From an uncultured Chloroflexia bacterium (GTDB lineage Bacteria; Chloroflexota; Limnocylindria; Limnocylindrales; CSP1-4), in the NCBI GenBank assembly GCA_963707215.1, contig CAVPPB010000001.1:256001-320000 (forward strand): a DNA stretch of 64,000 bases, read 5' to 3'. The notes below the pieces were generated by a model. It worked only from the letters and a program-made list of their open reading frames with translations, searched no databases and was not told where the DNA came from. Shown here piece after piece: positions 24,665 through 52,455 of the stretch (within the stretch, counting starts at the first letter, position 1; each line of letters opens with the position of its first letter). Position numbers and translations under genes: made by a program.

Positions 24665-24704
24665 TTGACCGGCGCCGGACCCGAGCCTATCCTCGATAAT
24701 CGAT
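24665..24704 (+). promoter_or_regulatory. Promoter TTGACC-N17-TATCCT with operator copy 1
   Basis: -35 at 24665-24670, -10 at 24688-24693, TCGATAATCGAT at 24693-24704. Confidence 0.8.
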
Positions 24705-24787
24705 GATGCCCACCCGAGCGCTCCCTCCCCTGGCATCCCGGGAGCGCCTGTCCCTTGCGGCGGGCCGCGATCACTGAAGGGAGCACG

Positions 24788-25573
24788 ATGAGCCAGCTCG
24801 ACATGTTCAGCCTGGAGGGGCGCGTCGCCCTGGTCCCCGGAGGTGGCGGCGCGATCGGCTCGGCGATGGCGGCCGCGATGGCCGGAGCCGGGGCCCGGGT
24901 CGCGGTGGTCGACGTCACCCAGGAGCGGGCCGACGAGGCGGCCGAGCTGGTCTCGAGGGCCGGGTCGGAGGCGCTCGCCCTGTCCGGGGACATGACCCAG
25001 GAGGCCGAGTGCGAGCGGATCGTCGCCGCGACGGTCGAGCGCTTCGGGCGGGTCGACATCATCTTCAACGCCGTCGGAGGCGGGGCCGGCAAGGTCCTCT
25101 TCGATGCCCAGGACTACCCCCGCGACGCCTGGGACTGGATCATGGAGCTCAACGTCCGGAGCACCCTGCTGGCGACCCAGGCCGCCGTCCGCCAGATGAT
25201 CGCCCAGGGCCACGGCGGCAGGGTCATCAACATCTCCTCGGTCCGGGCGTCGCTGGGCATCAACGCCGGCTACTCGGCGTACGTCGCCGCCAAGGGTGCG
25301 ATCAGCTCGCTGACCCGCCAGTGGGCGACCGAGTGGGCCAAGCACGGGATCAACGTCAACGCGATCGCCCCGACCTTCGTGGACACGCCGCAGGTCGCGA
25401 TGCTCCTCGACGACCCCGACTTCAAGGCCAGCATCGTCAGCCGCATCCCGCTGGGTCGGGTCGGCGGGACGCAGGACCTGGCCGGCGCGGTCCTCTTCTT
25501 CGCCTCCGATGCCTCGTCCTTCGTGACCGGGCAGATCCTAGGCGTCGACGGCGGGCTGACAGCGACCCAGTAG
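24788..25573 (+). CDS. SDR oxidoreductase (gluconate-5-dehydrogenase/KduD-like), NAD-type
   Basis: PGGGGAIG, Asp at the end of beta-B (VVD), YVAAK, TGQILGVDGG. Confidence 0.88.
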   Translation: MSQLDMFSLEGRVALVPGGGGAIGSAMAAAMAGAGARVAVVDVTQERADEAAELVSRAGSEALALSGDMTQEAECERIVAATVERFGRVDIIFNAVGGGAGKVLFDAQDYPRDAWDWIMELNVRSTLLATQAAVRQMIAQGHGGRVINISSVRASLGINAGYSAYVAAKGAISSLTRQWATEWAKHGINVNAIAPTFVDTPQVAMLLDDPDFKASIVSRIPLGRVGGTQDLAGAVLFFASDASSFVTGQILGVDGGLTATQ

Positions 25574-25586: not shown

Positions 25587-26564
25587 GTGACGACCGAAGC
25601 CCTCACCTCGCGGACCGGCTCCATCGCCATGGAGCCGGTGACGCCCAACGTGTTCACGACCACGAAGCTGCGGGGCTGCAACCCGAGCTTCGTGACCACG
25701 GCCGACGGCGTCGTCGTCGTCGACACGCCGCAGCTGCCCACCAAGGCGGTGGCGATGCGACGCGAGGCGGAGTCCCACGGCCCGATCCGCTACATCGTCA
25801 ACACCGAGCACCACGTCGACCACATCTTCGGCAACTGGTTCTTCCGGGGTGCCGGCACGGTGGTCAACCACCGTGCGCTGTACGAGCGGTTCATGGTCGT
25901 CTTCCCCGAGCTCGATCCCTTCGCCTACGCGTACCAGTCGATCCCCGGGGACGATCCCATGGGGACGGACCTCGACGACCCGGAGGGCGTCGCGCTCTGG
26001 CCCGATCGCGAGGAGTACTACCGCGACCCCAATGCCGGTCGGATCGTCTTCACCGGCGACCTGACGCTTCGGGTCGGGGACCACACGTTCGACCTCCTCC
26101 ACACGCCCGGCCACACCCCCGGGCAGCTGGCCGTCCACGTGCCCGAGGAGCGGGTCGTCTTCACCGGCGACACCATCTTCTCGGGCTGCCAGACCTGGCT
26201 CATGACCTCCGACGTCGACCAGTGGCTGGCCGCCCTCGACCGGATCGCGACCCTGGACGTGGACTGGATCGTCCCGGGCCACGGCCCGGTCGTCGGCAAG
26301 GACTACCTCGACGTCCAGCGAGCCCACTTGCTGGCCTGGAAGTCGGCGGTCGCGACGGCCATCGCCAAGGGCTGGACTCGCGACGAGACCATCGCCCGGG
26401 TCGACTTCAAGGACGAGTTCGGCCCGGTCGACATCGGTCAGGGCTACATGCTCGACTACATCCAGTCCCGGAACGCTGCGGCCCTCTACGACAAGCTGAC
26501 CGGGAGCACGCCCCAGCTCACCGCTCCCGACGGCACGCCGGCGACCGCCAGCAGCGCCAGCTGA
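25587..26564 (+). CDS. Metallo-beta-lactamase-fold hydrolase
   Basis: NTEHHVDHIFGN, HTPGHT, FTGD, VPGHG. Confidence 0.88.
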   Translation: MTTEALTSRTGSIAMEPVTPNVFTTTKLRGCNPSFVTTADGVVVVDTPQLPTKAVAMRREAESHGPIRYIVNTEHHVDHIFGNWFFRGAGTVVNHRALYERFMVVFPELDPFAYAYQSIPGDDPMGTDLDDPEGVALWPDREEYYRDPNAGRIVFTGDLTLRVGDHTFDLLHTPGHTPGQLAVHVPEERVVFTGDTIFSGCQTWLMTSDVDQWLAALDRIATLDVDWIVPGHGPVVGKDYLDVQRAHLLAWKSAVATAIAKGWTRDETIARVDFKDEFGPVDIGQGYMLDYIQSRNAAALYDKLTGSTPQLTAPDGTPATASSAS

Positions 26565-26619: not shown

Positions 26620-27720
26620 ATGTCCGCCGAGTCAACCACCGGGTCCACAGCGACGGCTCCGTCCCTGCCGGCCACCATGTCGGCGCTCGTCGTCATCGAG
26701 CCGGGCCGCGTCGAGATCCGGGAGGTGCCGGTGCCCCAACCCGGCCCGAACGAGGTCCTGGCCCGGGTCCGGGCGGTCTCGATCTGCGGCACCGACGCCC
26801 ACCTCATCCGGGGTGACTATCCCGGCTTCTGGCCGCCGGGCTTCCCGTTCATCCCCGGACACGAGTGGGCCGGCGAGATCGTCGCCCTGGGGCCGGGCGC
26901 GGAGCGGTTCGGCTGGCGGCACGGCGACCGCGTCGCCGGCACCTCACACGACGCCTGCGGCGTCTGCCGCGAGTGCGTGGAGGGACGCTACAACCTCTGC
27001 GAGAACTACGGCCGGGAGGGGCTGCACCGCCAGTACGGCCACAACGTCCAGGGTGCCGACGCCACCTACGTCGTCCATGGCGTGAAGTGCATCTTCCCGC
27101 TGCCCGACGGCCTCTCGTTCGAGGAAGGGGCGCTCATCGACCCGGCCTCGATCGCCCTCCACGTCGCCAACCGCGGTGAGGTCTCGCCGGGCGACACCGT
27201 CGTCATCACCGGCGCCGGGGCCATCGGCCTCCTCGGCGGCGACGCCGCCCGGATCCGCGGCGCCGGTCGGGTGATCATCGTCGGCCGGGGGCAGCGACTC
27301 GCCAAGGCGACCGAGATGGGGTTCGAGACGGTGGACTCGTCAGCCGGCGACCCCGTGGCAGCCGTCCGGGCGATGACCGACGGCCTGGGAGCCGACGTCG
27401 CGCTGGAGTGCGCCGGGGTGCCCGAGACCGTCGAGTGGGCCCTCGAGATGCTCCGCCGGGGCGGCCGCTGCGCCGCCGTCGGCATCCCCACCGTCGGCGT
27501 CGAGATCGGGATGCAGAAGCTGGTCCTCGACGAGCTCGAGCTCGTCGGCTCGCGGGCCTCGGCCGGCGAGATGCGCCGGGTCATGCCCCACGTCGAGCAG
27601 GGTCGGATGCGGGTCCGCGAGCTCATCACCCACCACTTCCCGCTGGCGGACTACGAGCAGGCCCTGGCCACCTTCAACGACCGCTCGAGCGGCGCGATCA
27701 AGATCGTCGTCCAGCCCTGA
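26620..27720 (+). CDS. Zn-dependent MDR alcohol/polyol dehydrogenase, paralog A
   Basis: ICGTD, GHEWAG, CGVCRECVEGRYNLC, GAGAIG. Confidence 0.92.
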   Translation: MSAESTTGSTATAPSLPATMSALVVIEPGRVEIREVPVPQPGPNEVLARVRAVSICGTDAHLIRGDYPGFWPPGFPFIPGHEWAGEIVALGPGAERFGWRHGDRVAGTSHDACGVCRECVEGRYNLCENYGREGLHRQYGHNVQGADATYVVHGVKCIFPLPDGLSFEEGALIDPASIALHVANRGEVSPGDTVVITGAGAIGLLGGDAARIRGAGRVIIVGRGQRLAKATEMGFETVDSSAGDPVAAVRAMTDGLGADVALECAGVPETVEWALEMLRRGGRCAAVGIPTVGVEIGMQKLVLDELELVGSRASAGEMRRVMPHVEQGRMRVRELITHHFPLADYEQALATFNDRSSGAIKIVVQP

Positions 27721-27789: not shown

Positions 27790-28560
27790 TCAGACGACCT
27801 CGGCAACCCCGAGGGAGTAGCCGCCGTCGACGTCGATGACCGCGCCCGTCACCCAGCGACCCCCGGGCCCCGCCAGCCAGGCCACGGCCTCGGCCACGTC
27901 GCGGCCCTCCCCGACGGCCGAGAGGGCCTGCTTCCCGAAGGTCAGGCCGGCCTCGAAGCGTGATCGTTCCGCCTCCTCGCTCAGGCCGCGCAGCTCGGAC
28001 GGGATGATGCCCGGGCGGATGACGTTGACACGGATCCCCTCGCGGCCCAGGTCGAGGGCGAGCGCCCGGGTCATCGCCTCGACCGCGCCCTTGCTGGCGA
28101 CGTAGCCGAAGCGTCCCCGGGGCGGCCGGTCGACGGCCGTCGAGCCGAGGTTGACGACCATGCCCCGACTCCGACGAAGCTCCGCCAGCGCCGCGCGGGT
28201 GCAGAGGAAGACGCTCATCACGTTCGCCCGGAGCATCCCCTCGAGATCGGCCTCCGCGAGGGCGTCGATGGGTCCCTGGACCTCGCTCCCGGCATCGTTG
28301 ACGAGGACGTCAACTCCACCGAACGACTCCACTGCGGCGGCCACCATCGAGCGGGCGTCTGCGTCGCGGGTCACGTCGGCCACGTGGATGGCGACCCTGC
28401 CGGGGGCGTCAGCGAGCTCCTCTGCGAGCCGCTCGAGGCGGTCGGCCCGCCGGGCCGCACCAAGGACGTCGGCGCCCTGCCGGGCAAGGTTTCGGACGAT
28501 ATGGGCACCCAGACCGCTCGAGGCTCCGGTGACGATGATCCGACGGCCCTCGAGCGACAT
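27790..28560 (-). CDS. SDR oxidoreductase, NADP-type
   Basis: TGASSGLG, AARR, YVASK, DVDGG; GGAGG RBS before ATG 28560. Confidence 0.88.
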   Translation of the reverse strand: MSLEGRRIIVTGASSGLGAHIVRNLARQGADVLGAARRADRLERLAEELADAPGRVAIHVADVTRDADARSMVAAAVESFGGVDVLVNDAGSEVQGPIDALAEADLEGMLRANVMSVFLCTRAALAELRRSRGMVVNLGSTAVDRPPRGRFGYVASKGAVEAMTRALALDLGREGIRVNVIRPGIIPSELRGLSEEAERSRFEAGLTFGKQALSAVGEGRDVAEAVAWLAGPGGRWVTGAVIDVDGGYSLGVAEVV

Positions 28561-28609: not shown

Positions 28610-30748
28610 TCAGGCTCGTCCCGCGGCGACCTCGTCAGCTCTGCTCCGCCCGGCGAGCAGGATCAGGTCCTCGTGGAGCTCGAACCAGACGCCGTGGTAG
28701 CTGTCGACCCGGGGTGAGGCGACGTAGCGGCCGTCCCCGCCCACGGCCTGGGCCGCGGCGTGGTCGAGGCGCGCCCGATAGGCGGCCAGCCTTGGCAGGC
28801 CGGGGACGAGCGATGCCAGCCAGGCGCCGGCATCAGCGTGGAGGCCGGCCAGCCGGTCCAGCACCCCGGCGTCGTACTCGGCGTCGCTGTGGTCGTTGAT
28901 GGCCTGCTCCCCGTCCACCTCGCGCATCTGCCAGGCGGTCACGGTGTCCTTCATCCGGGCATCGAGGTCGAGGAAGGCGTCGAGCGCGGTCTCGGCCCGC
29001 TCCGGGCCCCAGGCCTCGCGGTCGGCGGCGATCCGCTCGGCGCCGAGGGCCTTGCCGTCGGCGGTCAGCCGGAACATCCCACCGGCCAGCTCGGCCAGGC
29101 CGTCGGCCACGAGTCGGTCCAACAGTGCGGTCAGGTCGTCCGGGGTCGAGACGAGCGCCTGGGCCATCCCCTCGGGTGTCGCGTAGCCCTTGATGAGCAG
29201 CCCCCGGACCACGTCGTCGACGGTCGCCCGGACCGCCTCGAGCGTCGACGTGTCGGCCACGGAGTCCGCTCCGGCACCCGCGCCCGGCGGCTCGAGCTCG
29301 ATGCCGAGCTCGCTGGCCCAGCCTCGCAACACCGCCGCCTCGGGAACGATCGTGACGACTCCCGCGACGGCACCGCGGAAGACCTCGCCCGTGCCGCCGT
29401 CGATGGTGATCGTCTCACCGGCTTCCAGCGTCAGGTCGCCGATCGAGATCCGGCCCTCCCCCACCAGCAGGGCCGCGGCGCCGACGACGGCCGGGATGCC
29501 CCAGCCGCGGGCGACAACGGCGGCGTGGCTCGCCAGCCCGCCGGTCGCCGTCAGGATGCCGGCCGCGCGGGCCATGCCGTGGACGTCGTCGGGCGAGGTC
29601 TCGGAGCGGACCAGGATCACGGCCCGTCCGGCGTCGGCGGCCTCCACCGCGGCATCCGGCGTGGTGGCGATCTCCCCGCTCGCGATCCCGGGTGAGGCGG
29701 GCAGACCGGTCGCGAGGACACGGGCCGTCCCGTCGCGCTCGGCGACCGTCATCGGCGGGTCGACGAGATGGGCCGCGACGCGCTCGACGGCCTCCCGGCG
29801 CGAGAGCGGGAACGTCTCGTCCTCGGCCATGTCGAGGGCGATGCGAAGGGCGGCCTGGGGGCTGCGCTTGCCCACCCGGACCTGGAGCATCCAGAGCCGG
29901 CCCTGCTCGATGGTGAACTCGATGTCGCACAGGTCGGCGTAGTGGCGCTCCAGCCGATCGGCGTACTCGCGAAGCTCACGGGCGACGCCGGGAAGCCGCT
30001 CGTCGAGGACGGCGACCGGCTCGGTCCGATGGGTCCCGGCGACGACGTCCTCGCCCTGGGCGTCGAACATCAGGTCGCCGTAGAGCGTCGGATCACCGGT
30101 GGCCGGGTTCCTCGTGAAGAGGACGCCGGTGGCAGAGCCGGGGCCGCGGTTCCCGAAGACCATCGCCTGGACGGTCACCGCGGTCCCCAGGTCGTCGGGG
30201 ATCCCCTCGCGCTTCCGGTAGGCCCGGGCCCGATCGCTGTTCCAGGACCGGAAGACCGCCTCGACAGCGGCCCGGAGCTGGGTCCAGGGATCCGCCGGGA
30301 CCTCGTCGACGCCGACGATGTCGCGGAACATGCGGTCGAGCCGGGTCCGACAGGCCTCGGCGAACTCGGCCCCAGCGAGATCGGCCAGGCCGGCCTGGGT
30401 CGCATCGTTGAGGCCCAGGTTGAGGATCGTGTCCATCATCCCGGGCATCGACACCGGCGCGCCGGAGCGGACGCTGACGAGCAGCGGATCGGCCGGGTCG
30501 CCGAACCGGTGACCGACCGCGCCCTCGACCCGGATCATGTGCTCGCGCAGCTCGTCTTCCAGCCCCGCCGGCCAGCCCTCGGCGAGGTACTCGCGGCAGG
30601 TCCGGGTCGAGATCGTGAACCCGGGCGGTACCGGGAGCCGAAGCTCGTTGGCCATCACCGCGATGTTCGCCGCCTTGCTGCCGATGAGCGCCTTGAGCTC
30701 CGGCAGCGGCAGGTCGAAGGGGTGGTCGAGGGCGTAGACGTGGGTCAC
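28610..30748 (-). CDS. Truncated PPDK-like protein (ATP-grasp + phospho-His domain) fused to a wHTH/helical domain
   Basis: LLVSVRSGAPVSMPGMMDTILNLG, QAMVFGN, AQGEDVVAG, GGLASHAAVVARGWG; no pyruvate-binding barrel; C-terminal NDHSDAEYD...DSYHGVWFELHEDL. Confidence 0.88.
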   Translation of the reverse strand: MTHVYALDHPFDLPLPELKALIGSKAANIAVMANELRLPVPPGFTISTRTCREYLAEGWPAGLEDELREHMIRVEGAVGHRFGDPADPLLVSVRSGAPVSMPGMMDTILNLGLNDATQAGLADLAGAEFAEACRTRLDRMFRDIVGVDEVPADPWTQLRAAVEAVFRSWNSDRARAYRKREGIPDDLGTAVTVQAMVFGNRGPGSATGVLFTRNPATGDPTLYGDLMFDAQGEDVVAGTHRTEPVAVLDERLPGVARELREYADRLERHYADLCDIEFTIEQGRLWMLQVRVGKRSPQAALRIALDMAEDETFPLSRREAVERVAAHLVDPPMTVAERDGTARVLATGLPASPGIASGEIATTPDAAVEAADAGRAVILVRSETSPDDVHGMARAAGILTATGGLASHAAVVARGWGIPAVVGAAALLVGEGRISIGDLTLEAGETITIDGGTGEVFRGAVAGVVTIVPEAAVLRGWASELGIELEPPGAGAGADSVADTSTLEAVRATVDDVVRGLLIKGYATPEGMAQALVSTPDDLTALLDRLVADGLAELAGGMFRLTADGKALGAERIAADREAWGPERAETALDAFLDLDARMKDTVTAWQMREVDGEQAINDHSDAEYDAGVLDRLAGLHADAGAWLASLVPGLPRLAAYRARLDHAAAQAVGGDGRYVASPRVDSYHGVWFELHEDLILLAGRSRADEVAAGRA

Positions 30749-30805
30749 GGTCGGGGCATTCCTTTCGCTCGGTCGCAGGGACGAGGTTCGCCGGGCGCGC
30801 TTCGC

Positions 30806-31864
30806 CTAGGGCGCCACGATGATCTTGATGGCCCCACTCGCCGGGTCGTTGAACGTCGCCATCGCCACTTCGTAGTCGGCCAGGTCAAAGCGGTGGGTGA
30901 TGACGTCCCGGACCCGCATCCGGCCCGCGGCCACGTGGGGGATGACCCGGCGCATCTCGCCGGCCGAGGCGCGCGAGCCGACGAGCTCGAGCTCGTCGAG
31001 GACCAGGCGCTGCATCGCGATCTCTACCCCGACCGTGGGGATCCCGACCGCGGCGCAGCGGCCTCCCCGGCGGAGCATCGCCAGCGCCCACTGGACGGTG
31101 GTCGGGACCCCGGCGCACTCCAGGACGACGTCGGCGCCCAGGCCCCCGGTCATCGCCCGGACGGCCGTCACGGGATCACCCGCTCCCGGATCGACCGTCT
31201 CGAAGCCCATCTCGGCGGCCTTGGCCAGGCGGCGCTCGTTGACCTCGACGATGATGACCCGGGTCGCGCCCCGGATGTTCGAGGCGTCACCGGCCAGCAG
31301 CCCGATGGCCCCGCCGCCGGTGATGGCGACGGTGTCGCCGGGCGAGATCGCCCCGCGGTTGGCGACGTGGAGAGCGATCGAGGCGGGATCGATGACCGCG
31401 CCTTCCTCGTAGGTCAGATCGTCGGGCAGGGGGAAGACCGCCTTCACGCCGTGGACGACGTAGGTGGCGTCGGCACCCTGGACGTTGTGGCCGTACTGGC
31501 GGTGGAGCCCGGCGCGCCCATAGTTCTCGCAGAGGTTGTAGCGACCCTCCACGCACTTCTGGCAGACGCCGCAGGCGTCGTGCGAGGTGCCGGCGACGCG
31601 GTCGCCGACCTCGAACCCGAAGCGCTCCGCGCCGGGCCCCAGGGCGACGATGTCGCCGGCCCACTCGTGACCCGGGATGAAGGGGTACGAGGGCGGCCAG
31701 AAGCCCGGGTAGTCACCCCGGATGAGGTGGGCGTCGGTGCCGCAGATCGAGACGGCCTTGACCCGAGCGAGGACCTCGTTCGGGCCGGGCTCGGGGACCG
31801 GGACCTCGCGGATCTCCATCCGCCCCGGCTCGGGCAGGACCAGGGCCTGCATCGTCGAGGGCAC
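30806..31864 (-). CDS. Zn-dependent MDR alcohol/polyol dehydrogenase, paralog B
   Basis: Same motifs as 26620-27720, with long identical peptide stretches. Confidence 0.92.
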   Translation of the reverse strand: MPSTMQALVLPEPGRMEIREVPVPEPGPNEVLARVKAVSICGTDAHLIRGDYPGFWPPSYPFIPGHEWAGDIVALGPGAERFGFEVGDRVAGTSHDACGVCQKCVEGRYNLCENYGRAGLHRQYGHNVQGADATYVVHGVKAVFPLPDDLTYEEGAVIDPASIALHVANRGAISPGDTVAITGGGAIGLLAGDASNIRGATRVIIVEVNERRLAKAAEMGFETVDPGAGDPVTAVRAMTGGLGADVVLECAGVPTTVQWALAMLRRGGRCAAVGIPTVGVEIAMQRLVLDELELVGSRASAGEMRRVIPHVAAGRMRVRDVITHRFDLADYEVAMATFNDPASGAIKIIVAP

Positions 31865-31876
31865 GAGGTACTCCTT

Positions 31877-36355: not shown

Positions 36356-36369
36356 CGAGCGCTCTCCTG

Positions 36370-38045: not shown

Positions 38046-38055
38046 GGTGGAGGCG

Positions 38056-44205: not shown

Positions 44206-44574
44206 ATGATCAAGCGCGTGGCGCGTTCGGACGCGGATGTCGTGCCGCTCCCCGGAAGGGACTGGCACACCTACATCGGCCCGCAGAACACCCCGACCGA
44301 GCGCGTCTCGCTCGGCGTGTCCGTCTTCCCGCCGGGCTCGCGGCCCGAGGGCCACGTCCACGACACCCAGGAGGAGACGATCTACTGCGCCGCCGGGCGC
44401 GGCCGGATCGTCACCCCCGACGCCGTCGCCGAGGTCGAGGCCGGCGTCACGGTCTGGGTCCCCCCGGGCACCTTCCACGCCACCGAGTCCGACGGCCCGG
44501 AGCCCCTCGAGCTGGTCTGCTTCTTCTCGCCGCCGGTCGTGCCCGGGTCGTACGAGAAGGGGGCCGGCTCGTGA
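44206..44574 (+). CDS. Cupin domain protein
   Basis: HVHDTQEETIY and VPPGTFH metal-binding motifs. Confidence 0.88.
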   Translation: MIKRVARSDADVVPLPGRDWHTYIGPQNTPTERVSLGVSVFPPGSRPEGHVHDTQEETIYCAAGRGRIVTPDAVAEVEAGVTVWVPPGTFHATESDGPEPLELVCFFSPPVVPGSYEKGAGS

Positions 44575-45470
44575 GCGACTCCCCCACCCCGGCCGCGGTG
44601 CTCGACCCCTCGGAGCTGGCCGCCCTCGAGGAGACGGCCCGACGCATCCGGGTCCAGATCGTGCGGACCGTCGACCACGCCAAGGGCGGCCACCTCGGTG
44701 GGCCGCTCTCGGCTGCCGACATCCTGGCCGCCCTCTACTTCCGGATCATGCGCGTGCGACCCGAGGAGCCGACCTGGCCCGACCGCGATCGGCTGATCCT
44801 GTCGAAGGGTCACTCGTCGATCGGCCTCTACGCGGCGATGGCCCTGCGCGGCTACCTCCCGCTGGAGGAGCTGGCCACCTTCGACGCCGTCCACTCCCGG
44901 CTGCAGGGGCATCCCGACATGAACCTCCTGCCGGGGCTCGACATGTCCACCGGGTCGCTGGGCATGGGCATATCGGCCGGCGTCGGGATGGCGCTCGGCG
45001 CGCGACTCACCGGCCGGGATTGCCGGACCTTCGTCATCCTCGGGGACGGCGAGTGCCAGGAGGGCGAGGTCTGGGAGGCCGCGATGGTCGGCTCGCGCTA
45101 CGGCCTCGACAACCTCATCGCCATCGTCGACCACAACAAGCTCCAGCAGTACGGCTGGCCGGGCGCATCGGCCGAGCACCGCCGTCCACCCGAGGAGCCC
45201 GGCGAGCTGGTCGCCAAGTGGTCAGCCTTCGGCTGGCGGGTCCTCGAGACGGACGGCCATGACATGACGGCGGTCGTCCGGACGCTCGAGTCGGCGACGG
45301 TCCCGGATGGACGCCCGGTCGCCGTCGTCGCCCATACGATCAAAGGCCGGGGGGTCTCCTTCATGGAGGATCGCTACTACTGGCACACCCGGATCCTCAA
45401 GCCGGAGGAGTTCGAGCAGGCGATGGCCGAGCTCGGCGAGCCGGCCGCTCCTGAAGGAGACCGGCGATGA
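44571..45470 (+). CDS. Transketolase N-terminal subunit (split TK)
   Basis: GHLGGPLS, SKGH, LQGHP, GSLGMG, GDGECQEG. Confidence 0.92.
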   Translation: MSDSPTPAAVLDPSELAALEETARRIRVQIVRTVDHAKGGHLGGPLSAADILAALYFRIMRVRPEEPTWPDRDRLILSKGHSSIGLYAAMALRGYLPLEELATFDAVHSRLQGHPDMNLLPGLDMSTGSLGMGISAGVGMALGARLTGRDCRTFVILGDGECQEGEVWEAAMVGSRYGLDNLIAIVDHNKLQQYGWPGASAEHRRPPEEPGELVAKWSAFGWRVLETDGHDMTAVVRTLESATVPDGRPVAVVAHTIKGRGVSFMEDRYYWHTRILKPEEFEQAMAELGEPAAPEGDRR

Positions 45471-46411
45471 CACTTCCGATGGGCCGGGCCATGCGCGAGG
45501 TCTTCGGCGAGACCGTCGCCGCCATGGCCGACGACGACCCGCGGATCGTCATGCTCGACGGCGACCTGGGCAGCTCGACGAAGGGCGACATGTTCGAGCG
45601 CGCCCACCCCGAGCGCTTCCTGCCGATGGGCATCGCCGAGCAGAACATGCTCGGCGTCGCAGCCGGACTGGCCACGATGGGCCTCATCCCCTACATCAGC
45701 ACGTTCGTGTCGTTCGCCCTGATCCGGCCGCTCGACCAGATCCGGGTCCTCATCGCCCAGACCGGGCTGCCCGTCAAGATCACCGCCGGCTACGCTGGGC
45801 TGTTCACCGGGATGGCCGGCAAGACCCACCAGATCGTCGACGACATCTCGATCGCCCGGGCGATGCCGGGCATCGTCGTCGTCTCGCCGGCCGACGACGT
45901 GGAGGCGGCCCAGGTGCTCCGCTGGAGCGCCGAGCATCCCGGACCGGTCTACATCCGGCTCGTCCGCGACGCGACCCAGCGCCTGTTCGACGAGTCGTAC
46001 CGGTTCACGTTCGGCGAGGCCGTCGTGGTCCGCCCCGGAAGCGACGTCACGCTCATCAGCACGGGAGCCCAGACGCCGCGAGTCGTGGATGCCGCGGATA
46101 TCCTCGCGGCGAGCGGCATCGACGCCCATGTCGTCCACCTGCCGACGATCAAGCCGATCGACGTGGCGGGGGTCGTGGCTGCCGCGGACCTGACCGACCG
46201 GGTCGTGACCGTCGAGGAGCACACCGTCCTGGGCGGGCTCGGCGGGGCCGTCGCCGAGGTCCTCTCGGAGCATCGGCCGACCCGGGTCGCCCGGGTCGGG
46301 TTGCCGGACATCTACACCGAGTCGGGACCCAACGACGCCCTGCTCGACCTGTACGGCCTCTCCGCGGAACGGGTGGCCGACCAGGTCCGGCGGACGCTCG
46401 ACGCCGACTGA
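45467..46411 (+). CDS. Transketolase C-terminal subunit (split TK)
   Basis: GIAEQNM, GKTHQ, TIKPID, EEH..GGLG. Confidence 0.92.
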   Translation: MTLPMGRAMREVFGETVAAMADDDPRIVMLDGDLGSSTKGDMFERAHPERFLPMGIAEQNMLGVAAGLATMGLIPYISTFVSFALIRPLDQIRVLIAQTGLPVKITAGYAGLFTGMAGKTHQIVDDISIARAMPGIVVVSPADDVEAAQVLRWSAEHPGPVYIRLVRDATQRLFDESYRFTFGEAVVVRPGSDVTLISTGAQTPRVVDAADILAASGIDAHVVHLPTIKPIDVAGVVAAADLTDRVVTVEEHTVLGGLGGAVAEVLSEHRPTRVARVGLPDIYTESGPNDALLDLYGLSAERVADQVRRTLDAD

Positions 46412-46469: not shown

Positions 46470-47189
46470 TCAGTCCTCCGTCGTGGACCCGGCTCCGGCT
46501 GCCCGGGTCCCGGCCATCGCCGGACCCTCGGTCTCTCGGGCCCATCCGCGGTCGAGCTTCGCGGCCGCATCGACGAAGTGGCGCCGGAGCACCCGGTCGA
46601 GGAGCTCGGGGTCGCGGCGACGGATCGCATCGAGGATCGGCTCATGGAGATCGGCGATCTCGACGGGATCGACGCCAGGCACGAGCAGCGTGATGTACGT
46701 CCGAGAGAACGGTTCGAGGGCCTGCCAGACACGGACCAGGGTTGCATTCCCGGACATCGCCAGGATGGCGCCGTGGAAGGCCGCGTCGTTGAGCGCGAGC
46801 TCGTGACGATCCTTGGCCCGGGCCGCCCGATGCATCGCCTCGAGACGCCCGGCCAACGCGCTGACGTCGTCCTCATCGATCCGCTCGACCGCGAGCTTGG
46901 CGCCGTACGATTCCAGTTCGGCCCGGACCGTGAAGGCCTCCAGCAGCTCATCCGTCGTGGGTCGGCGGACCCGGGCGCCACGGAACGGCTCGATCTCGAC
47001 GACCCCGGTGGCTTCGAGCCCGCGGAGCGCCTCCCGGACCGGTGCCTGGCTGACCCCGAGCTCCCGGGCCACGCGCGTTTCGATGATCCTCGAATCGGGC
47101 GGGTAACGGCCGGTGAGGATGTCCTGGAGCAGGCGGTCCTTGACCTGGTCTGCGAGGACGCTGCGGGCGATCATGCCGTCTCCGGCCAT
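46470..47189 (-). CDS. GntR-family regulator with FCD domain, paralog 2
   Basis: RSVLADQVKDRLL, SQAPVREALR, LEPFSRTYITL shared with paralog 1. Confidence 0.92.
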   Translation of the reverse strand: MAGDGMIARSVLADQVKDRLLQDILTGRYPPDSRIIETRVARELGVSQAPVREALRGLEATGVVEIEPFRGARVRRPTTDELLEAFTVRAELESYGAKLAVERIDEDDVSALAGRLEAMHRAARAKDRHELALNDAAFHGAILAMSGNATLVRVWQALEPFSRTYITLLVPGVDPVEIADLHEPILDAIRRRDPELLDRVLRRHFVDAAAKLDRGWARETEGPAMAGTRAAGAGSTTED

Positions 47190-47308: not shown

Positions 47309-48178
47309 GTGATGCGGGCGATGGTCCAGGCCGACCTCATCCCGGTCATCGACGGCGACTGGGTCGTCTGGGCCTTCTCGGATCCCCACGGGGTGACCTC
47401 GGGGTTCGTCACCGCGCTCAGCGAAGCCGGGCTGATCGACGCTGAGCTCCGCTGGAGTGCCCCACCGCGGACCGCGCTCGTGGGCTGCGGGGACTACATC
47501 GACCGAGGGACGGACTCACCCGGCCTCGTGGCGCTGCTCCGGCGCCTCGAGGTCGAGGCCGCCGCCGGCGGCGGGCGGGCCGTCTTCGCCCGCGGCAATC
47601 ATGAGCAGACCCTGCTCCACATCGGGGCCGGCCACGACGAGCTGCTTGAGACCTGGCTGTTCTACGGGGGCCAGGCGACGCTCGATGCCTTCGGCTGCCC
47701 CGCGGCCGATCCACCAGATCCGGCTGCCTCGGTGCGGGCGATCGAGGCGGCCGCCCCGGGGATCCTCGGCTGGCTGGCTGCCATGCCCCAGGCGGTCCGC
47801 TGGCGGGACGTGCTCTTCGTCCACGGCGGGTTGCCGCCCTGGTCGGCGCCGGGCGAGCTCGGGCTCACGACCGAGGAGCACCTCATGATCCGGTCCGACT
47901 TCTTCGACACCCCCTGGTCCACCGAGGCCTTCCACCACTACGAGCGCGAGGGCATCGGCCGAGTCGTCTTCGGGCACACGCCCGGCCCCGACGGGCCGCG
48001 GATCCTCCAGGACGGTCGCCTCCTCTGTCTCGACTCGAACGCCGCTGGCAGTCCGCAGCTGCCAGCCGAGGCGAGGTCGATGATCAGCCTCGTCCGCCTG
48101 GACGGGCCGCTGCCCTTCGATCGCGCCGCGCTCGTCCTCGTCCCGACCCACGATGCTCCCGAGCGGGCACCGCGCTGA
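47309..48178 (+). CDS. Metallophosphoesterase (PPP Ser/Thr-phosphatase-like)
   Basis: SDPHG, GDYIDRG, RGNHE, FVHGG, FGHTP. Confidence 0.88.
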   Translation: MMRAMVQADLIPVIDGDWVVWAFSDPHGVTSGFVTALSEAGLIDAELRWSAPPRTALVGCGDYIDRGTDSPGLVALLRRLEVEAAAGGGRAVFARGNHEQTLLHIGAGHDELLETWLFYGGQATLDAFGCPAADPPDPAASVRAIEAAAPGILGWLAAMPQAVRWRDVLFVHGGLPPWSAPGELGLTTEEHLMIRSDFFDTPWSTEAFHHYEREGIGRVVFGHTPGPDGPRILQDGRLLCLDSNAAGSPQLPAEARSMISLVRLDGPLPFDRAALVLVPTHDAPERAPR

Positions 48179-48179
48179 T

Positions 48180-48695
48180 TCAGCCGGTCTCGGCCTCGAG
48201 GCGCTTGACCGCAGCCTCCCATGTCCCCGGGTCGGCCAGGGGCGCCAGGTCGGCGATCACCAGTTCGATCTGGGCCATGCAGCCGTCCCGCCAGCGGCCG
48301 CTCTCGATGAAGGCGTCGTGCTGGCCGGGCGCACGCAGGTCGATGCCGATCAGGTCGCGGCAGGCGACCGAGCCGTGGCGCTCGACGAAGCGGTCCATCG
48401 CCTCGGCCACGACCGCCCTGGCCACCCGTTTGGCCCGGCGATGATCGACCAGCCGGCGCTCGGCCAGGATGCCGACCGCGAGCGCTGCGCCGGAGATCGC
48501 GCCGCAGACACCGCCGCTGTAGGCGACGCCGCCGTTGAGGACCATGGCAGGGGCCGAGCTGGTGACCTCGTCCAGGCCGTACGACTCGGCCAGGGCCAGG
48601 TAGGCCGATTCCGCGCAGCCGTAGGCGCCGTCCGAGTCGAGGAAGAGGCGCCTGGCTCGGGCGACAGCGCTGGGATGCGGTCCGTCATCGGCCAT
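48180..48695 (-). CDS. C-GCAxxG-C-C family putative redox protein
   Basis: YGCAES, VCGAISG, VACRDL, GC pattern; start ATG 48695. Confidence 0.82.
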   Translation of the reverse strand: MADDGPHPSAVARARRLFLDSDGAYGCAESAYLALAESYGLDEVTSSAPAMVLNGGVAYSGGVCGAISGAALAVGILAERRLVDHRRAKRVARAVVAEAMDRFVERHGSVACRDLIGIDLRAPGQHDAFIESGRWRDGCMAQIELVIADLAPLADPGTWEAAVKRLEAETG

Positions 48696-48731
48696 CGAGG
48701 TCCTTCCCGCTCCCGGCCGGGGCACCGTTCG

Positions 48732-48771
48732 TTGACCAGTGCCCGACCCCTGCGTATATTCGATAATCGAT
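48732..48771 (+). promoter_or_regulatory. Promoter TTGACC-N17-TATATT with operator copy 5
   Basis: -35 at 48732-48737, -10 at 48755-48760, operator at 48760-48771. Confidence 0.8.
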
Positions 48772-48832
48772 GATACCGCCGGCGACACCGGCCATTCCCG
48801 GCCCGCGGTGGGCCCGACCCAAGGAGACCGAC

Positions 48833-51148
48833 GTGGCCGAGCCGACGACCGTGGAGCTGACCTTCCGGAGCGATGCCCGCCCGGACCTGGTCCCCTTCCA
48901 CGAGGACCTCGGCAGCGTCAGCGGCTTCTCCTATGCCGGAGACCTGGCCAGCGAGCTCGCCGCCGGCTCCCTCGATGGTGGAGCGGCGCTCGCCCTCCTC
49001 GATGACATGCTGGCGATCCGCGAACTCGAGGAGATGATCGTCCGCCTGCGATCCGGGGGCTTCGACGCGCTGCCCGGGTTCGACTACCGTGGTCCGACCC
49101 ACGTCTCGATCGGCCAGGAGGGGACGGCCGTCGGCGCGATGGCGGCCCTCCGCCCGGACGACGACATCACGAGCTCGCATCGTGGCCACGGCGACGCCAT
49201 CGCCAAGGGCTTCGCCGCGATCCGCCGGATGTCCGACGACGAGCTCCGGGCGAGGATCCCCGGGACGACGGCCGGGACCCGGGCGGAGCTCCTGGAGGCC
49301 GCCCTCGAGGAACACGTCTATCGGACCGTCGCCGAGCTCTTCGGCAAGGAGGAGGGCTACTGCCGCGGGCGGGGTGGCGGCATGCACATCGGCGACTTCT
49401 CGACCGGCCATCTCGGCGCGAACGCCATCGTCGGGGGCAGCGTGCCCATCGCGACGGGCGCGGCGATGGCCCATCGCTACCACGGCAGCGAGCGGCTGGT
49501 CTGCTGCTTCGCGGGCGACGGCGCGTACGCCAACGGCGTCGTCCTCGAGTCGCTCAACTGGGCGACCCAGCAGCAGTGGACCAACCACTACGCGGGCGAC
49601 CGTCCATTCGGCCTGCCGATCATCTACCTGATCCAGAACAATCACTACGGGATGACCCACCGGACTGACGACGAGGTCATGGGCGTGCGTCACCTCGCCC
49701 GACGCGGAGCCGGCTTCGCCGAGGACGGCATGCACGCAGAGGTCGTCAACGGGATGGACGTCCTGGCCGTCCGGGACGCCGTCGCGCGTGCCGCCGAGCT
49801 GTGCCGCGAGGGACGCGGGCCGGTCCTCATCGAGGCGAGCACCTACCGCTACTACGGTCACTCGCTGTCGGACCCCCGCAACGAGTACCGGACCAGGGAC
49901 GAGGAGGCCGCCTGGCGGGCAGTGGACCCGATCGAGCGCCTCAAGGACCAGCTGGTGACGTCGGGAACCGCCGACGAGGCCGCCATCGAGGAGGTCGAGC
50001 GTGGCGCCCGTGAGCGCAATGCCCGGGCGGCGGTCCGAGCCTCGCAGGGCACCGACCCTGATCCGGCCGACCTGCTGCGCTACATGTACGCGGGCACGGT
50101 CGAGGCGCAGGTCCCGCCGGACGCCCGCCCCGTCGTCACCTTCGCCGAGCCGCCCACCTCCAAGCTCGATGCCGACGGCGCGATCACGTATCGCGATGCC
50201 ATCCGCGAGGCCCTCGTCGAGGAGATGACCCGCGACAGCCGGGTGATCCACTACGGCGAGGACATCGCCGACTACGGGGGCGCCTTCAAGCTGACCAAGG
50301 GGCTCCTGGAGTCGTTCGGGCGTCAGCGGGTCTTCAACACGCCGATCTCGGAGGCAGCGATCTGCGGGACGGCCGTGGGCGCCGCCATCGTCGGGCTCCG
50401 GCCCGTCGTTGAGCTCATGTACATGGACTTCGCCCTGATGGCCTCGGACCAGATCGCCAACCAGGCCGGCAAGTGGCACTTCATGAGCGGCGGCAATCTG
50501 ACGGTGCCGCTCGTGATCCGGGCGTCGGTCGGAGCCGGCAAGGGCTACGGCGGTCAGCACTCTCAGTCCCTGGAGAGCATCTTCACCCACGTCCCCGGCA
50601 TGGTCGTCGTCTACCCCGCGACCCCGGCCGACGCGAAGGGCTTGCTGAAGACCGCGGTCCGATCGGACGATCCGGTCATGTTCGTCGAGAGCCAGGGCCT
50701 CTACCCGACCAAGGGGGTCGTCCCGGAGGGCGAGCACCTGGTGCCCTTCGGACAGGCTCGGATCGCCCGCCAGGGCAGCGATGCCACGATCGTCGCCTGG
50801 GGTCCGGCGGTGCTCGACGCACTGACGGCCGCCGAGCACCTGGCCTCGGAGGACGGCGTCGAAGTCGAGGTCGTCGACCTCCGCAGCCTGGTGCCGCTGG
50901 ACATGGACACGGTGCTCGCGTCGGTACGCAAGACCGGCCGCTGCGTGGTGGCCAGCCAGGCCATCCTGATCGGCAGCTACGTGAACGAGATCGTCGCCCG
51001 GATCCAGATCGAGGCCTTCGACGACCTGGATGCGCCGGTGGGACGGATCGGAGCGGCCAACGGCATCTCGCCCCAGGCCGAGGGCCTGGAGCGGGCCTTC
51101 CTCCCGAACGCCGACGACATCGTCGCCGCCGTCCGCGAGCTGGGCTGA
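48833..51148 (+). CDS. Fused E1 alpha/beta ThDP-dependent dehydrogenase (acetoin/2-oxoacid dehydrogenase family)
   Basis: HVSIGQEG, SHRGHG, GRGGGMH, GDGA...NN, TYRYYGHS, NTPISE, QHSQS; GTG 48833 after AAGGAG. Confidence 0.9.
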   Translation: MAEPTTVELTFRSDARPDLVPFHEDLGSVSGFSYAGDLASELAAGSLDGGAALALLDDMLAIRELEEMIVRLRSGGFDALPGFDYRGPTHVSIGQEGTAVGAMAALRPDDDITSSHRGHGDAIAKGFAAIRRMSDDELRARIPGTTAGTRAELLEAALEEHVYRTVAELFGKEEGYCRGRGGGMHIGDFSTGHLGANAIVGGSVPIATGAAMAHRYHGSERLVCCFAGDGAYANGVVLESLNWATQQQWTNHYAGDRPFGLPIIYLIQNNHYGMTHRTDDEVMGVRHLARRGAGFAEDGMHAEVVNGMDVLAVRDAVARAAELCREGRGPVLIEASTYRYYGHSLSDPRNEYRTRDEEAAWRAVDPIERLKDQLVTSGTADEAAIEEVERGARERNARAAVRASQGTDPDPADLLRYMYAGTVEAQVPPDARPVVTFAEPPTSKLDADGAITYRDAIREALVEEMTRDSRVIHYGEDIADYGGAFKLTKGLLESFGRQRVFNTPISEAAICGTAVGAAIVGLRPVVELMYMDFALMASDQIANQAGKWHFMSGGNLTVPLVIRASVGAGKGYGGQHSQSLESIFTHVPGMVVVYPATPADAKGLLKTAVRSDDPVMFVESQGLYPTKGVVPEGEHLVPFGQARIARQGSDATIVAWGPAVLDALTAAEHLASEDGVEVEVVDLRSLVPLDMDTVLASVRKTGRCVVASQAILIGSYVNEIVARIQIEAFDDLDAPVGRIGAANGISPQAEGLERAFLPNADDIVAAVRELG

Positions 51149-51174
51149 CCGGTCAGCACGACGGAGGACGACCG

Positions 51175-52455
51175 ATGGCGCACCCCATCCTGATGCCGAA
51201 GCCCGGCCAGATGACCGAGGAGTGCGTGCTGACGGTCTGGCACAAGGCAGAGGGCGAGCCGGTCGCCAAGGGCGACATCCTGTTCGAGATCGAGACCGAC
51301 AAGTCGATCATGGACGTCGAGTCGTTCGAGCAGGGGGTCCTCCTCCGGCGGCTCGTCGACGAGGGCGCGACCGTGCCCGTCAACACGGTCTGCGGCTGGG
51401 TGGGCGAGCCCGGCGAAGCCGTGCCGGACGCTCCGCCACCGCCCGTCACGGCCGCGGCTGGAGCCGACGGGACGGCACGGGTCGGGACGAGCGCGGTCGA
51501 GGTGGCACCGAGTGTCGGCTCGTCGGGGCCCGCAGCTGCCGCGAAGCCCGAACCGGCGATCCGGCCAGACCAGGGCGAACGCCTCCGCATCAGCCCCCGG
51601 GCGACCCGGATGGCCGCCGAGGCCGGGCTCGACCCACGGTCGATCACCGGCAGCGGCCCGGGCGGCCGGATCGTCGAGCGCGACGTCGTCGCCGCCATCG
51701 GGACCGGATCCGTCGGGGCCGGCGCCCCTCCCCCGAGCCCGGAGGCCTTCCCCACGGTCGCCGGCGAGGAGCCGCCGCGGCCGCTGAGCCGGATGCGACG
51801 GGTCATCGCAGAGCGCCTGACGCTCAGCGCCACGACCATCCCGTCGTTCACCGTCACCGTGGCGGTCGACGTCAGCCGCCTCCAGGCGATCAGAGCCGAC
51901 CTCAAGTCGCGGGGCACCAGCCTCAGCGTCACCGACTTCGTGCTCCTCGCGACGGCCCAGGCGCTGGCCGACCATCCCGACGTCAACTCGCGGACCGACG
52001 GGACCCAGGTCTGGCCCCGTCGCCGGGTCCACCTCGGCGTGGCGGTCGCCCTCCCCGCCGGGCTGGTCGTCCCGGTGATCCGGGATGCCGACGTGCTGAC
52101 GCTCACCGAGATCCACGACCGGGCGGTCGAGCTCATCGAGCGGGCCCGTGACGGCACGCTGAGCCCCGACGAGATGAGCGGCAGCACGTTCACCGTCTCG
52201 AACCTGGGGATGCACGGTGTCGAGGAGTTCAGCGCCATCATCAACCCCGGCGAGTCCGGGATCCTGGCCGTCTCGAGCGCCGTTCCCTCGGCCGTGGTCG
52301 TGGGTGACGGCGTCGCCGTCCGCTCGATCATGAAGCTGACACTGACGGCCGATCACCGCCTGGTGGACGGCGAACTGGCGGCCCGGTTCCTCAATGCGGT
52401 CCGCAGCCGCCTGGAGGATCCGGGCACGCTGCGGCGGGTGACGGACGGGGCCTAG
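51175..52455 (+). CDS. Dihydrolipoamide acyltransferase E2
   Basis: Lipoyl motif ETDKS, E3-binding GSGPGGRI, TFTVSNLG, DHRLVDG. Confidence 0.92.
   Translation: MAHPILMPKPGQMTEECVLTVWHKAEGEPVAKGDILFEIETDKSIMDVESFEQGVLLRRLVDEGATVPVNTVCGWVGEPGEAVPDAPPPPVTAAAGADGTARVGTSAVEVAPSVGSSGPAAAAKPEPAIRPDQGERLRISPRATRMAAEAGLDPRSITGSGPGGRIVERDVVAAIGTGSVGAGAPPPSPEAFPTVAGEEPPRPLSRMRRVIAERLTLSATTIPSFTVTVAVDVSRLQAIRADLKSRGTSLSVTDFVLLATAQALADHPDVNSRTDGTQVWPRRRVHLGVAVALPAGLVVPVIRDADVLTLTEIHDRAVELIERARDGTLSPDEMSGSTFTVSNLGMHGVEEFSAIINPGESGILAVSSAVPSAVVVGDGVAVRSIMKLTLTADHRLVDGELAARFLNAVRSRLEDPGTLRRVTDGA

Follow-up and report, generated by a model that had tools for sequence, protein, structure and literature searches.

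The DNA analysed here, referred to below as the window, is a 64-kb stretch (G000:C1:256001-320000; G+C content 72%) of the genome of an uncultured Chloroflexia bacterium, whose assembly comprises 3.26 Mb in five contigs and is 84.8% complete. The window carries an island of about 25 genes (24665-52455) that are held together by one common DNA signal; the island is real and strongly conserved. It may well be the main part of a single conserved regulon, controlled by GntR-type regulators, for an uncharacterised catabolic pathway acting on a hydroxylated aromatic or N-heteroaromatic ring compound. We favour such a ring over a conjugate of sugar and ring by analogy with several precedents, namely the HpdA hydroxylase of Ensifer with its companions orf9 and orf10, the HpeHI dikinase acting on phenolic hydroxyls, and the aromatic kinase MarK. 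New are the conserved operator with its genome-wide specificity, a distant transporter, and the attachment to the core of gene pairs for a transaldolase (TAL)-like protein and a (methyl)malonate-semialdehyde dehydrogenase (MMSDH), a cupin and a transketolase (TK), a short-chain dehydrogenase (SDR1) and a metallo-beta-lactamase-fold hydrolase (MBL), and the E1 and E2 components of a 2-oxoacid-type dehydrogenase.

Genes were called with GC3 (third-position G+C) frame plots and named with Pfam and NCBIfam. All enzymes listed in an earlier reading of the same DNA (the original prediction) were recovered, with E1 alpha and beta fused in one gene and E2 encoded by a separate one.

Operators and regulators

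Five identical operators had been proposed to stand in front of the transcription units of the island, and they do. The 11-mer TCGATAATCGA occurs exactly at 24693, 40065, 40275, 44118 and 48760 and nowhere else in the window; with up to one mismatch allowed there were 10 strand-matches (five sites on two strands), compared with 0.67 on average and 3 at most in 100 shuffles. All five operators lie in promoter regions and have the 12-mer palindrome TCGATAATCGAT in common. Operator O1 (24693-24704) belongs to a promoter-like element TTGACC-N17-TATCCT on the plus strand (24665-24704) and precedes SDR1, MBL and a zinc-dependent medium-chain dehydrogenase (MDR1). O2 (40065-40075) is located 243 nt upstream of the gene for a phosphoenolpyruvate (PEP)-utiliser protein and O3 (40275-40285) 54 nt upstream of the TAL-like gene. 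O4 forms part of a second TTGACC-N17-TATCCT element (44090-44128, plus strand) before the cupin gene, and O5 of a TTGACC-N17-TATATT element (48732-48770, plus strand). In the elements starting at 24665, 44090 and 48732 the operator comes right after the hexamers, where a bound protein would extend over the -10 box and the start of transcription. At O5 (48755-48772) the fused E1 gene has its start codon (ATG at 48770) within the operator, about 10 nt past the -10-like TATATT, which suggests a leaderless or near-leaderless mRNA. An Rfam scan of positions 23000-54000 gave no match at E <= 0.1, and thus no riboswitch in the long leader.

The operator is equally specific at the level of the genome. 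Only six exact TCGAT[AT]ATCGA sites occur in the whole assembly, five in the island and one on another contig (C3:1468233), and all six belong to the island gene set or to its ABC operon. The genes for the second GntR regulator, a metallophosphoesterase and an F420-type LLM oxidoreductase have no operator within two mismatches.

Two regulators are encoded, GntR1 (37308-38045, minus strand) within the long minus-strand operon and GntR2 (46470-47189, minus strand); the reasoning of the original prediction named neither of them, nor the metallophosphoesterase and a C_GCAxxG_C_C protein. Both have the FadR-type layout of an N-terminal GntR helix-turn-helix (HTH) and a C-terminal FCD domain (Pfam) and are 61% identical, with near-identical HTH regions and diverged FCD domains. 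Since the conserved palindrome stands at promoters of operons that contain or neighbour the regulator genes, both paralogs probably bind the common operator; GntR1, being within the operon, would be autoregulated if it does so.

Relatives of the island were found in a scan of species-representative genomes with the PEP-utiliser protein (38056-39822) as seed, and close homologs were confirmed at no fewer than 536 places. Titles of the best 80 of these at least 536 loci are nearly all Chloroflexota, Candidatus Limnocylindrales or Limnocylindria, mostly uncultured, from soil and freshwater. These 80 loci (1.39 Mb) contain 125 exact operators, none within a labelled gene and 112 at most 400 nt upstream of a labelled start. 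The genes found at this distance include those for the cupin (40), the PEP-utiliser (34), TAL (30), UPF0261 (Tm-1-like; 24), an ABC permease (20) and an EamA-type protein (12). Whole genomes of five relatives hold 4-7 operators apiece, 26 in total, with 0 for a reversed-pattern control; 20 of the 26 adjoin orthologs of island genes or the ABC operon, among them SDR1-MBL(-MDR1) in six cases, TAL-MMSDH in one and E1-E2 or ABC/E1 in two. Synteny was counted by tblastn in the 45 loci that carry both 10-kb flanks, where counts for MDR, GntR and SDR genes are affected by paralog cross-hits, and the phyletic distribution was drawn from 121 genomes of the class.

A distant transporter

The sixth operator stands about 140 nt upstream of a LIV-type ABC operon of five genes (C3:1468094 to 1463272), coding for two permeases, two ATPases and a Peripla_BP_6 binding protein. 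This operon is 67-79% identical to a transporter within the cluster of relatives, and parts of it lie inside the cluster in 20-22 of the 45 loci. The island had been described as having no canonical kinase or transporter. Its ORFs scanned with Pfam indeed have no FGGY, PfkB or ROK kinase domain and no transporter domain; for the transporter this is true of the island alone, because the operator-linked ABC operon lies elsewhere in the genome and is in-cluster in relatives. A PDB sequence search with the binding protein gave no match at E <= 0.001 and hence no hint of the ligand.

Two side observations concern this locus. The ortholog of one ABC ATPase (G000:C3, around 1464910) is split in two tblastn pieces, its last 52 residues being in another frame than the first 179, which points to a frameshift or to an indel in the assembly. 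Across the sixth operator from the ABC operon, and divergent from it, is a LigB-family (YgiD-like) gene (G000:C3:1468380-1469315; L110:8380-9315; Pfam 1.7e-27), the likely true start of which (MPAIYLGHG) is about 300 nt from the operator; this extradiol dioxygenase-like gene was rejected as a member of the regulon, as no homolog was present in any of the relatives' loci analysed.

Conservation and co-inheritance

Homologs of the island genes co-occur in relatives, both in the 45-locus synteny and in the 121-genome sample, as expected of the one co-regulated, co-inherited unit that had been proposed; a lack of such co-occurrence would have refuted the original prediction. Core genes were found in 43-45 of the 45 loci and a GntR gene in 44. 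The gene for a 295-aa P-loop protein, here called miniK, is present in 22 of the 121 genomes, with a patchy distribution within genera (e.g., 2/7 and 1/5). A TAL ortholog of at least 60% identity accompanies it in 20 of these 22 genomes, versus 1 of the 99 others, and the fused E1 occurs in 15 genomes of the 121, of which 14 have miniK. Moreover, in two genomes of another family (G020 and G074) miniK, TAL and E1 are on one contig with 73-79% identity, which fits block transfer of the whole set.

These distributions bear on the idea, which we consider rather unlikely, that the regulon does not serve a single linear pathway: modules for related substrates (dikinase/Mo enzyme/cyclase, SDR/MBL, TAL/MMSDH, cupin/TK and E1/E2) would share the operator, and the two GntR paralogs would integrate two effectors. 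Paralogs with near-identical DNA-binding regions and diverged FCD domains are consistent with it, as are the uneven presence of the modules among relatives, the TAL-MMSDH and SDR1-MBL pairs that sit at separate places in some genomes with the operator kept, and a lower-identity tier of TAL proteins in genomes without the core. Against it stand the near-confinement of the high-identity TAL and of the fused E1 to core genomes and the occurrence of the whole set on one contig in the two genomes of another family.

A related cluster is present in a cultured organism, Thermomicrobium roseum, on the megaplasmid NC_011961.1 (56118-72461; L001). It contains a PEP-utiliser 45% identical to that of the island, a LIV-type ABC transporter, Tm-1-like, PEP-hydrolase, GntR and cyclase genes and the FAD, Mo and FeS subunits, and further a stand-alone PEP/pyruvate-binding (ATP-grasp) protein, an FAH-family hydrolase and an ABM monooxygenase. 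This cluster could give an experimental entry point.

A predicted dikinase and its P-loop companion

The island encodes two PEP-utiliser-type proteins, and both are without the PEP/pyruvate barrel. The first (28610-30748, minus strand; 712 aa; 43/45 loci) is a truncated protein resembling pyruvate phosphate dikinase (PPDK), with the Pfam domains PPDK_N and PEP-utilizers. It consists of an ATP-grasp, a swivel His (LASHAAV) and a C-terminal part of about 230 aa (233 aa) without a Pfam hit, and it passes the Rv1127c-type model NF004531 (504.8 bits; cut-off 456). We propose it as the ATP-binding half of a dikinase. The second, the PEP-utiliser itself (38056-39822, minus strand; 588 aa; named with Pfam and NCBIfam), is the proposed phosphate-carrying and acceptor-binding half. 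PF00391 was placed at residues 562-631 of the long ORF, and the C-terminal swivel His of its TVSHPAV motif (His537) is invariant in 10/10 aligned homologs. Over its N-terminal 470 residues the protein matches acceptor-binding parts in the NCBIfam models for rifampin phosphotransferase (RPH), PigC and RedH, with matches to the C-terminal halves of these models, and RPH 5FBS aligns to residues 378-579. This N-terminal part is highly conserved (mean column identity 89%), and more than 120 database clusters share 81-93% identity with the protein. Precomputed annotation of its homologs lists the Pfam family PF27448.

The suggestion of a dikinase-type activation agrees with this domain content and with published two-component dikinases (PMC12167813), and is a prediction from sequence. 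Small-molecule dikinases of this kind described in the open-access literature are HpeHI of Rhodococcus, AcvAB of Sphingobium, CreHI of Corynebacterium and the phenylphosphate synthase PpsAB of Thauera (PMC12167813, PMC9618137); HpeHI is reported to act on phenolic hydroxyls, with its ATP-grasp on a protein that has no swivel domain (PMC12167813). Judged by these descriptions, the island pair resembles them in carrying the acceptor-binding part and a swivel His on one subunit and the ATP-grasp on the second, both related to rifampin phosphotransferase. It differs in that the ATP-grasp partner is a truncated PPDK with a swivel His and a C-terminal extension of its own, in the presence of a third, strictly syntenic P-loop protein, and in that the island contains no carboxylase of Hpe, Acv or Ppc type. 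Because the ATP-grasp partner has its own swivel His, unlike the published pairs, the enzyme may be a dikinase variant with two phospho-histidine carriers. The ATP-grasp partner also recalls VadK (Rv1127c) of M. tuberculosis, described as a PPDK-derived autophosphorylating kinase (PMC13400623). As in VadK, PPDK nucleotide-binding and His domains are found with no PEP/pyruvate barrel; unlike VadK as described, the island protein has 712 aa versus 534 positions in the model and belongs to a catabolic operon with an acceptor-binding partner, not to methylcitrate-cycle genes.

The third protein, miniK (36370-37257, minus strand; GGESNHGKSM; 43/45 loci), had been called HPrK-like, a designation that stands at the level of the fold but not of the family. 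It has no hit in Pfam or NCBIfam, including none to the Hpr_kinase_C sequence family, and its representatives among 1.84 billion proteins number only 178; the GESNHGKS of the P-loop is invariant. The AlphaFold (AF2) model (pLDDT 91.3) retrieved with Foldseek ATP-dependent PEP carboxykinase (PEPCK) first (E 4.8e-8, TM 0.47 on query) and HPrK/P from rank 37 onwards (E 6.5e-5). Both HPrK/P and the PPDK regulatory protein act on a phospho-His carrier, of which they phosphorylate a Ser or Thr residue; by analogy miniK may control the swivel domains. A complex prediction for the PEP-utiliser and miniK, run without controls, scored 0.00 and counts neither for nor against binding.

An improbable reading is that the three proteins are purely regulatory, the VadK-like protein, the PEP-utiliser and miniK acting on the Mo enzyme or on the pathway flux through a His/Ser phospho-relay, along the lines proposed for VadK in M. 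tuberculosis, with no small molecule being phosphorylated. It draws on the match to NF004531, a model built on Rv1127c-type proteins, on the two swivel His domains, on the HPrK/P and PEPCK fold of miniK, on the report of VadK as an autophosphorylating kinase that interacts with enzymes (PMC13400623), and on the Ensifer preprint, according to which no phosphorylated intermediate was detected (bioRxiv 10.1101/2020.01.08.898148). The match of the N-terminal 470 residues of the PEP-utiliser to acceptor-binding parts, the conservation of this region, which is as expected of a substrate pocket, and the reported phosphorylation of small molecules by HpeH-type proteins (PMC12167813) argue against it.

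A further connection to aromatic substrates comes from relatives. MarK, a UPF0261 protein of Novosphingobium aromaticivorans, is described as an aromatic kinase (PMC12624787). UPF0261 (Tm-1-like) genes occur in 20-22 and PEP-hydrolase-like genes in 17 of the 45 relatives' loci, the former often behind an operator, so that, as far as the published account of MarK goes, the regulon is again tied to the phosphorylation of aromatic hydroxyls. Unlike in these relatives, the UPF0261 and PEP-hydrolase-like pair of the present genome is located away from the island (C3:1296878-1299010; L111), with no exact operator.

Molybdenum hydroxylase and candidate ring-processing enzymes

A three-subunit enzyme of the xanthine dehydrogenase (XDH) family is encoded on the minus strand by genes for the FAD medium subunit (35489-36355; 288 aa; FAD_binding_5 and CO_deh_flav_C; 44/45 loci), the [2Fe-2S] small subunit (35013-35492; Fer2_2 and Fer2; 43/45) and the Mo-cofactor large subunit (32764-35016; Ald_Xan_dh_C, MoCoBD_1 and MoCoBD_2; 44/45), followed by a cyclase-family gene, with a 4-nt overlap at every junction. 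The nearest solved chains of the large subunit are the alpha subunit of 4-hydroxybenzoyl-CoA reductase (HcrA; 321.8 bits) and then quinoline 2-oxidoreductase (233.8 bits). The three-part layout is likewise that of 4-hydroxybenzoyl-CoA reductase (1RM6), whereas TIGR03194 scored 421.6, below its cut-off of 994.55, no CoA ligase is encoded in the island, and the FAD subunit, with CO dehydrogenase CutM as best PDB match and 1rm6_B matching residues 9-124 only, does not have the HcrB-type 4Fe-4S insert. An electron path of the hydroxylase type is therefore likelier than one of the reductase type. The nearest plasmid-borne Mo subunits, from Variovorax (41.7%) and Arthrobacter crystallopoietes (37.6%), belong to N-heterocycle-type clusters without dikinase genes, which is weak context.

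The closest described parallel is the 3hpd cluster of Ensifer adhaerens HP1. There, HpdA is reported to convert 3-hydroxypyridine to 2,5-dihydroxypyridine only together with orf9 (PPDK) and orf10 (PEP-utiliser), which the authors could not explain (bioRxiv 10.1101/2020.01.08.898148). As in that cluster as described, an XDH-family Mo hydroxylase adjoins PPDK-like and PEP-utiliser genes, here in one minus-strand run (28610-39822), and both systems have a GntR regulator as well as an ABC transporter inside the cluster or associated with it. Unlike it, the island has no SRPBCC subunit (HpdA3) among its Pfam-scanned ORFs and, judging from domain names only, no maleamate-pathway (hpdB-E) domains, and it adds miniK, the cyclase, the MDRs, the SDRs, MBL, the TAL-like protein with MMSDH, the cupin with split TK, and E1 with E2. 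Ensifer matches in a plasmid collection belong to a different XDH cluster and were rejected as 3hpd genes. By its gene content the core appears to be a variant of dikinase-assisted Mo-hydroxylase clusters such as 3hpd, with a dikinase that looks like a HpeHI/CreHI/PpsAB variant having a VadK-like partner. Thus, the original prediction that the combination of genes is not a described pathway was right for the full set, of which no description was found in the main texts of the open-access literature, but not for its core, which is precedented in Ensifer adhaerens HP1 (bioRxiv 10.1101/2020.01.08.898148).

The cyclase-family (PF04199) metal hydrolase (31877-32767, minus strand; Pfam 1.3e-24; 39/45 loci) matches 5ibz (2.3e-21) and isatin hydrolase (8.8e-5) in the PDB; isatin hydrolases, a kind of amide or lactam hydrolase, are its sole solved relatives with a name, and the enzyme is a candidate for the ring- or amide-opening step. 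Opening of dihydrophloroglucinol would be another conceivable activity of a cyclase-family enzyme; no paper with the term dihydrophloroglucinol cyclohydrolase was found in the open-access literature, and the idea carries no weight here.

SDR1 (24755-25573, plus strand; adh_short_C2 9.5e-62) has orthologs in relatives beside MBL and behind an operator. MBL (25587-26564, plus strand; Lactamase_B 4.5e-26) reached no NCBIfam model at cut-off and is a possible lactonase. The two zinc-dependent dehydrogenases, MDR1 (26620-27720, plus strand; ADH_N and ADH_zinc_N) and MDR2 (30806-31864, minus strand; Pfam; MDR genes in 39/45 loci), form an inverted duplication (26666-27718 and 30808-31863) with 81-84% identity in DNA and 83% in protein; the best NCBIfam match of MDR1 is IolM (5.3e-62, under cut-off). 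Relatives' core loci mostly have one MDR copy in the operon, and a second copy follows SDR1-MBL in some. SDR2 (27790-28560, minus strand; Pfam; 26/45 loci) is the last gene of the long minus-strand operon.

Predicted carbon-carbon cleavage enzymes and the question of a sugar moiety

The divergent protein of the transaldolase/FSA family (40329-41423, plus strand; TAL_FSA 6.5e-32; 24/45 loci) reached no NCBIfam TAL model at cut-off (best 108.2, cut-off 367). In an alignment with E. coli TalB, its invariant K141 aligns to the Schiff-base Lys132, the column of the catalytic Glu96 has Gln in 7/7 cluster-type sequences, unlike TalB, and the Phe178 column has Met. Fructose-6-phosphate aldolase also has Gln at the position of TalB Glu96. 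We propose from sequence that the protein is a class I aldolase or transaldolase. Its gene is directly upstream of that for the CoA-acylating MMSDH (41464-42990, plus strand; TIGR01722 624.9 bits, cut-off 448.5), an enzyme of the IolA type. In myo-inositol catabolism, IolJ performs a dihydroxyacetone-releasing aldol split to malonate semialdehyde, the substrate of IolA. The TAL-like protein may similarly carry out an aldol split that releases or transfers dihydroxyacetone, the aldehyde product being an acid of the malonate-semialdehyde type; from the pairing with MMSDH we infer the aldol cleavage of a ring-derived keto-acid and not of a separate sugar moiety.

Downstream of O4 the cupin (44206-44574, plus strand; 122 aa; Cupin_2 2.6e-13; 36/45 loci), a candidate isomerase, heads the operon of a split TK, composed of an N-terminal, thiamine diphosphate (ThDP)-binding half (44571-45470) and a C-terminal half (45467-46411), both on the plus strand, named with Pfam and found in 31/45 loci. 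The solved chain nearest to the C-terminal half is the split TK of Carboxydothermus hydrogenoformans (6YAJ, 4.2e-79). The last operator serves the fused E1 alpha-beta of a 2-oxoacid/acetoin-type dehydrogenase (48770-51148, plus strand; E1_dh, Transket_pyr and Transketolase_C in one ORF) and the E2 acyltransferase (51175-52455, plus strand; lipoyl, E3-binding and catalytic domains; GGAGGA near the start). In L077 and L080, the relatives at the greatest distance, E2 and E1 are part of the cluster itself, E2 being so in L077.

The original prediction had assigned these genes to one pathway for a sugar or polyol moiety joined to a ring, such as a modified nucleoside, a C-glycoside or an aminocyclitol, the Mo enzyme, cyclase and MBL processing the ring and TAL and TK the ketose. 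We now regard this as unlikely. It is true that the TK is near a genuine split TK, that the TAL-like protein keeps the equivalents of the phosphate-binding Arg181 and Arg228 of TalB, that the TK operon begins with a cupin gene, cupin-type sugar isomerases being known, and that the MDRs score best against models of IolM and threonine dehydrogenase. Dedicated TAL or split TK enzymes are known for unusual ketoses (sulfo-TAL, sulfo-TK, apiose TK), but unlike in the sulfo-TAL and sulfo-TK routes no sulfonate-related genes accompany those of the island. In one relative (G002; L100, G002:C1:2879000-2891000), moreover, an operator-linked TAL-MMSDH pair immediately follows a KduI/IolB-family gene and neighbours xylose-isomerase-like (IolE-like), GFO/IDH/MocA (IolG-like) and LacI-type genes. 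This inositol link does not recur: IolB is present in 0 of the 45 core loci and, unlike in myo-inositol catabolism, IolB, IolC, IolD and IolJ were not found in the island or in its genome (84.8% complete), so that it serves as a mere hint to the role of TAL and MMSDH. Nothing found pointed to a substrate in two parts, and neither the island nor the conserved extra genes of relatives showed a domain of a glycosidase, nucleosidase, phosphorylase or C-glycoside lyase. The transporter is of LIV (Peripla_BP_6) type, not sugar type, and the uses documented in the literature found for dikinase-type and UPF0261 kinases are aromatic hydroxyls. As for TAL and TK themselves, housekeeping copies of both (202.9 and 465.9 bits, respectively) are encoded on contig C3; the island copies are extra and divergent, and the pairing of TAL with MMSDH suggests a function other than the processing of a separate sugar part.

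Other genes in and around the island

The F420-type LLM oxidoreductase gene (43108-44019, plus strand; NCBIfam) is probably a passenger, as it has no operator, is preceded by hairpin-like repeats and was found in 1 of the 45 loci. Membership of the metallophosphoesterase (47309-48178, plus strand; Metallophos 1.7e-8; 6/45 loci) is uncertain. The C_GCAxxG_C_C redox-type protein (48180-48788, minus strand; Pfam; 11/45 loci) is encoded divergently from E1 across O5. To the right of the island (52521-57069), with no operator, follow an ORF similar to F420H2-dependent quinone reductases, a gene resembling ADP-forming acyl-CoA synthetases (ATP-grasp_5, CoA_binding and Succ_CoA_lig domains) and citrate synthase.

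Proposed pathway and its meaning

For a hydroxylated aromatic or N-heteroaromatic ring the regulon would work as follows. Uptake of the substrate would fall to the LIV-type ABC transporter, whose genes follow the sixth operator on a different contig, and a ring hydroxyl would be phosphorylated at the expense of ATP, which in a reaction of the HpeHI type would yield AMP plus Pi with transfer of the beta-phosphate, by the split swivel-histidine dikinase, made up of the VadK-like ATP-grasp/His protein and the PEP-utiliser with its acceptor-binding and His parts; miniK, of PEPCK/HPrK fold, would be a helper or regulator of this dikinase. The three-subunit Mo enzyme would then hydroxylate the ring with water in a dikinase-dependent manner, like the 3-hydroxypyridine dehydrogenase of Ensifer. 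The zinc-dependent MDRs and the SDRs would adjust the redox state of the ring before its hydrolytic opening by the cyclase-family enzyme, with SDR1 and MBL as a possible second hydrolytic step. The TAL-fold aldolase would cut the resulting keto-acid or ketol to a product of malonate-semialdehyde type, which MMSDH would convert to an acyl-CoA, and further ThDP-dependent cleavage would be due to the cupin with the split TK and to the fused E1 with E2. The end products would be acyl-CoA and central intermediates.

Several points weigh against this proposal. All of its biochemical steps, and the binding of the GntR proteins to the palindrome, rest on inference. The island showed neither an obvious dearomatising enzyme nor a ring dioxygenase. 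The similarity of the TK to a bona fide split TK and the two Arg residues kept in the TAL-like protein fit ordinary sugar phosphates too. The Ensifer precedent is a preprint with an unexplained mechanism, to which the island was likened by gene description. Six of the 26 operators in the five relatives adjoin unrelated genes; of the 45 loci, 11 have MMSDH within 10 kb and 9-11 have SDR1/MBL; a further 18 of the 99 genomes lacking miniK, one of them (G092) flagged as unpublished, encode TAL-type proteins of 51-58% identity; and just 14 of the 22 miniK genomes have the fused E1. Finally, kin are not independent, so that the co-occurrence counts are descriptive and overstate the support.

A more specific version of the ring pathway is a speculative possibility. 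In it, a pathway widespread in soil Chloroflexota would degrade a phenolic or 3-hydroxypyridine-type ring with a three-part phospho-histidine dikinase and a phosphorylation-dependent Mo hydroxylation from water; the ring would be reduced and hydrolysed to a chain like a deoxy-keto-sugar acid, which would be cut by the TAL-fold aldolase with MMSDH, by TK and by E1/E2. No oxygenase was found in the island. One concrete class of candidate substrates is formed by the vitamin B6 vitamers, substituted 3-hydroxypyridines against which no finding speaks. If this were true, aromatic breakdown would feed pentose-phosphate-type chemistry.

For the study of such pathways the regulon provides a defined list of parts, comprising one operator, two regulators, one binding protein and some 20 enzymes. 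It bears on the question raised by Ensifer, why a Mo hydroxylase should need an ATP-driven phospho-histidine kinase, and it ties dikinase/Mo chemistry to dedicated carbon-carbon cleavage of transaldolase, transketolase and E1/E2 type, a link not described in the literature found on phosphorylation-initiated aromatic pathways. Given the number of PEP-utiliser homologs and the nearly exclusive origin of the best 80 loci from uncultured soil and freshwater Chloroflexota, the island would represent a catabolic trait that is frequent, though unstudied, in an abundant and uncultured group of this phylum.

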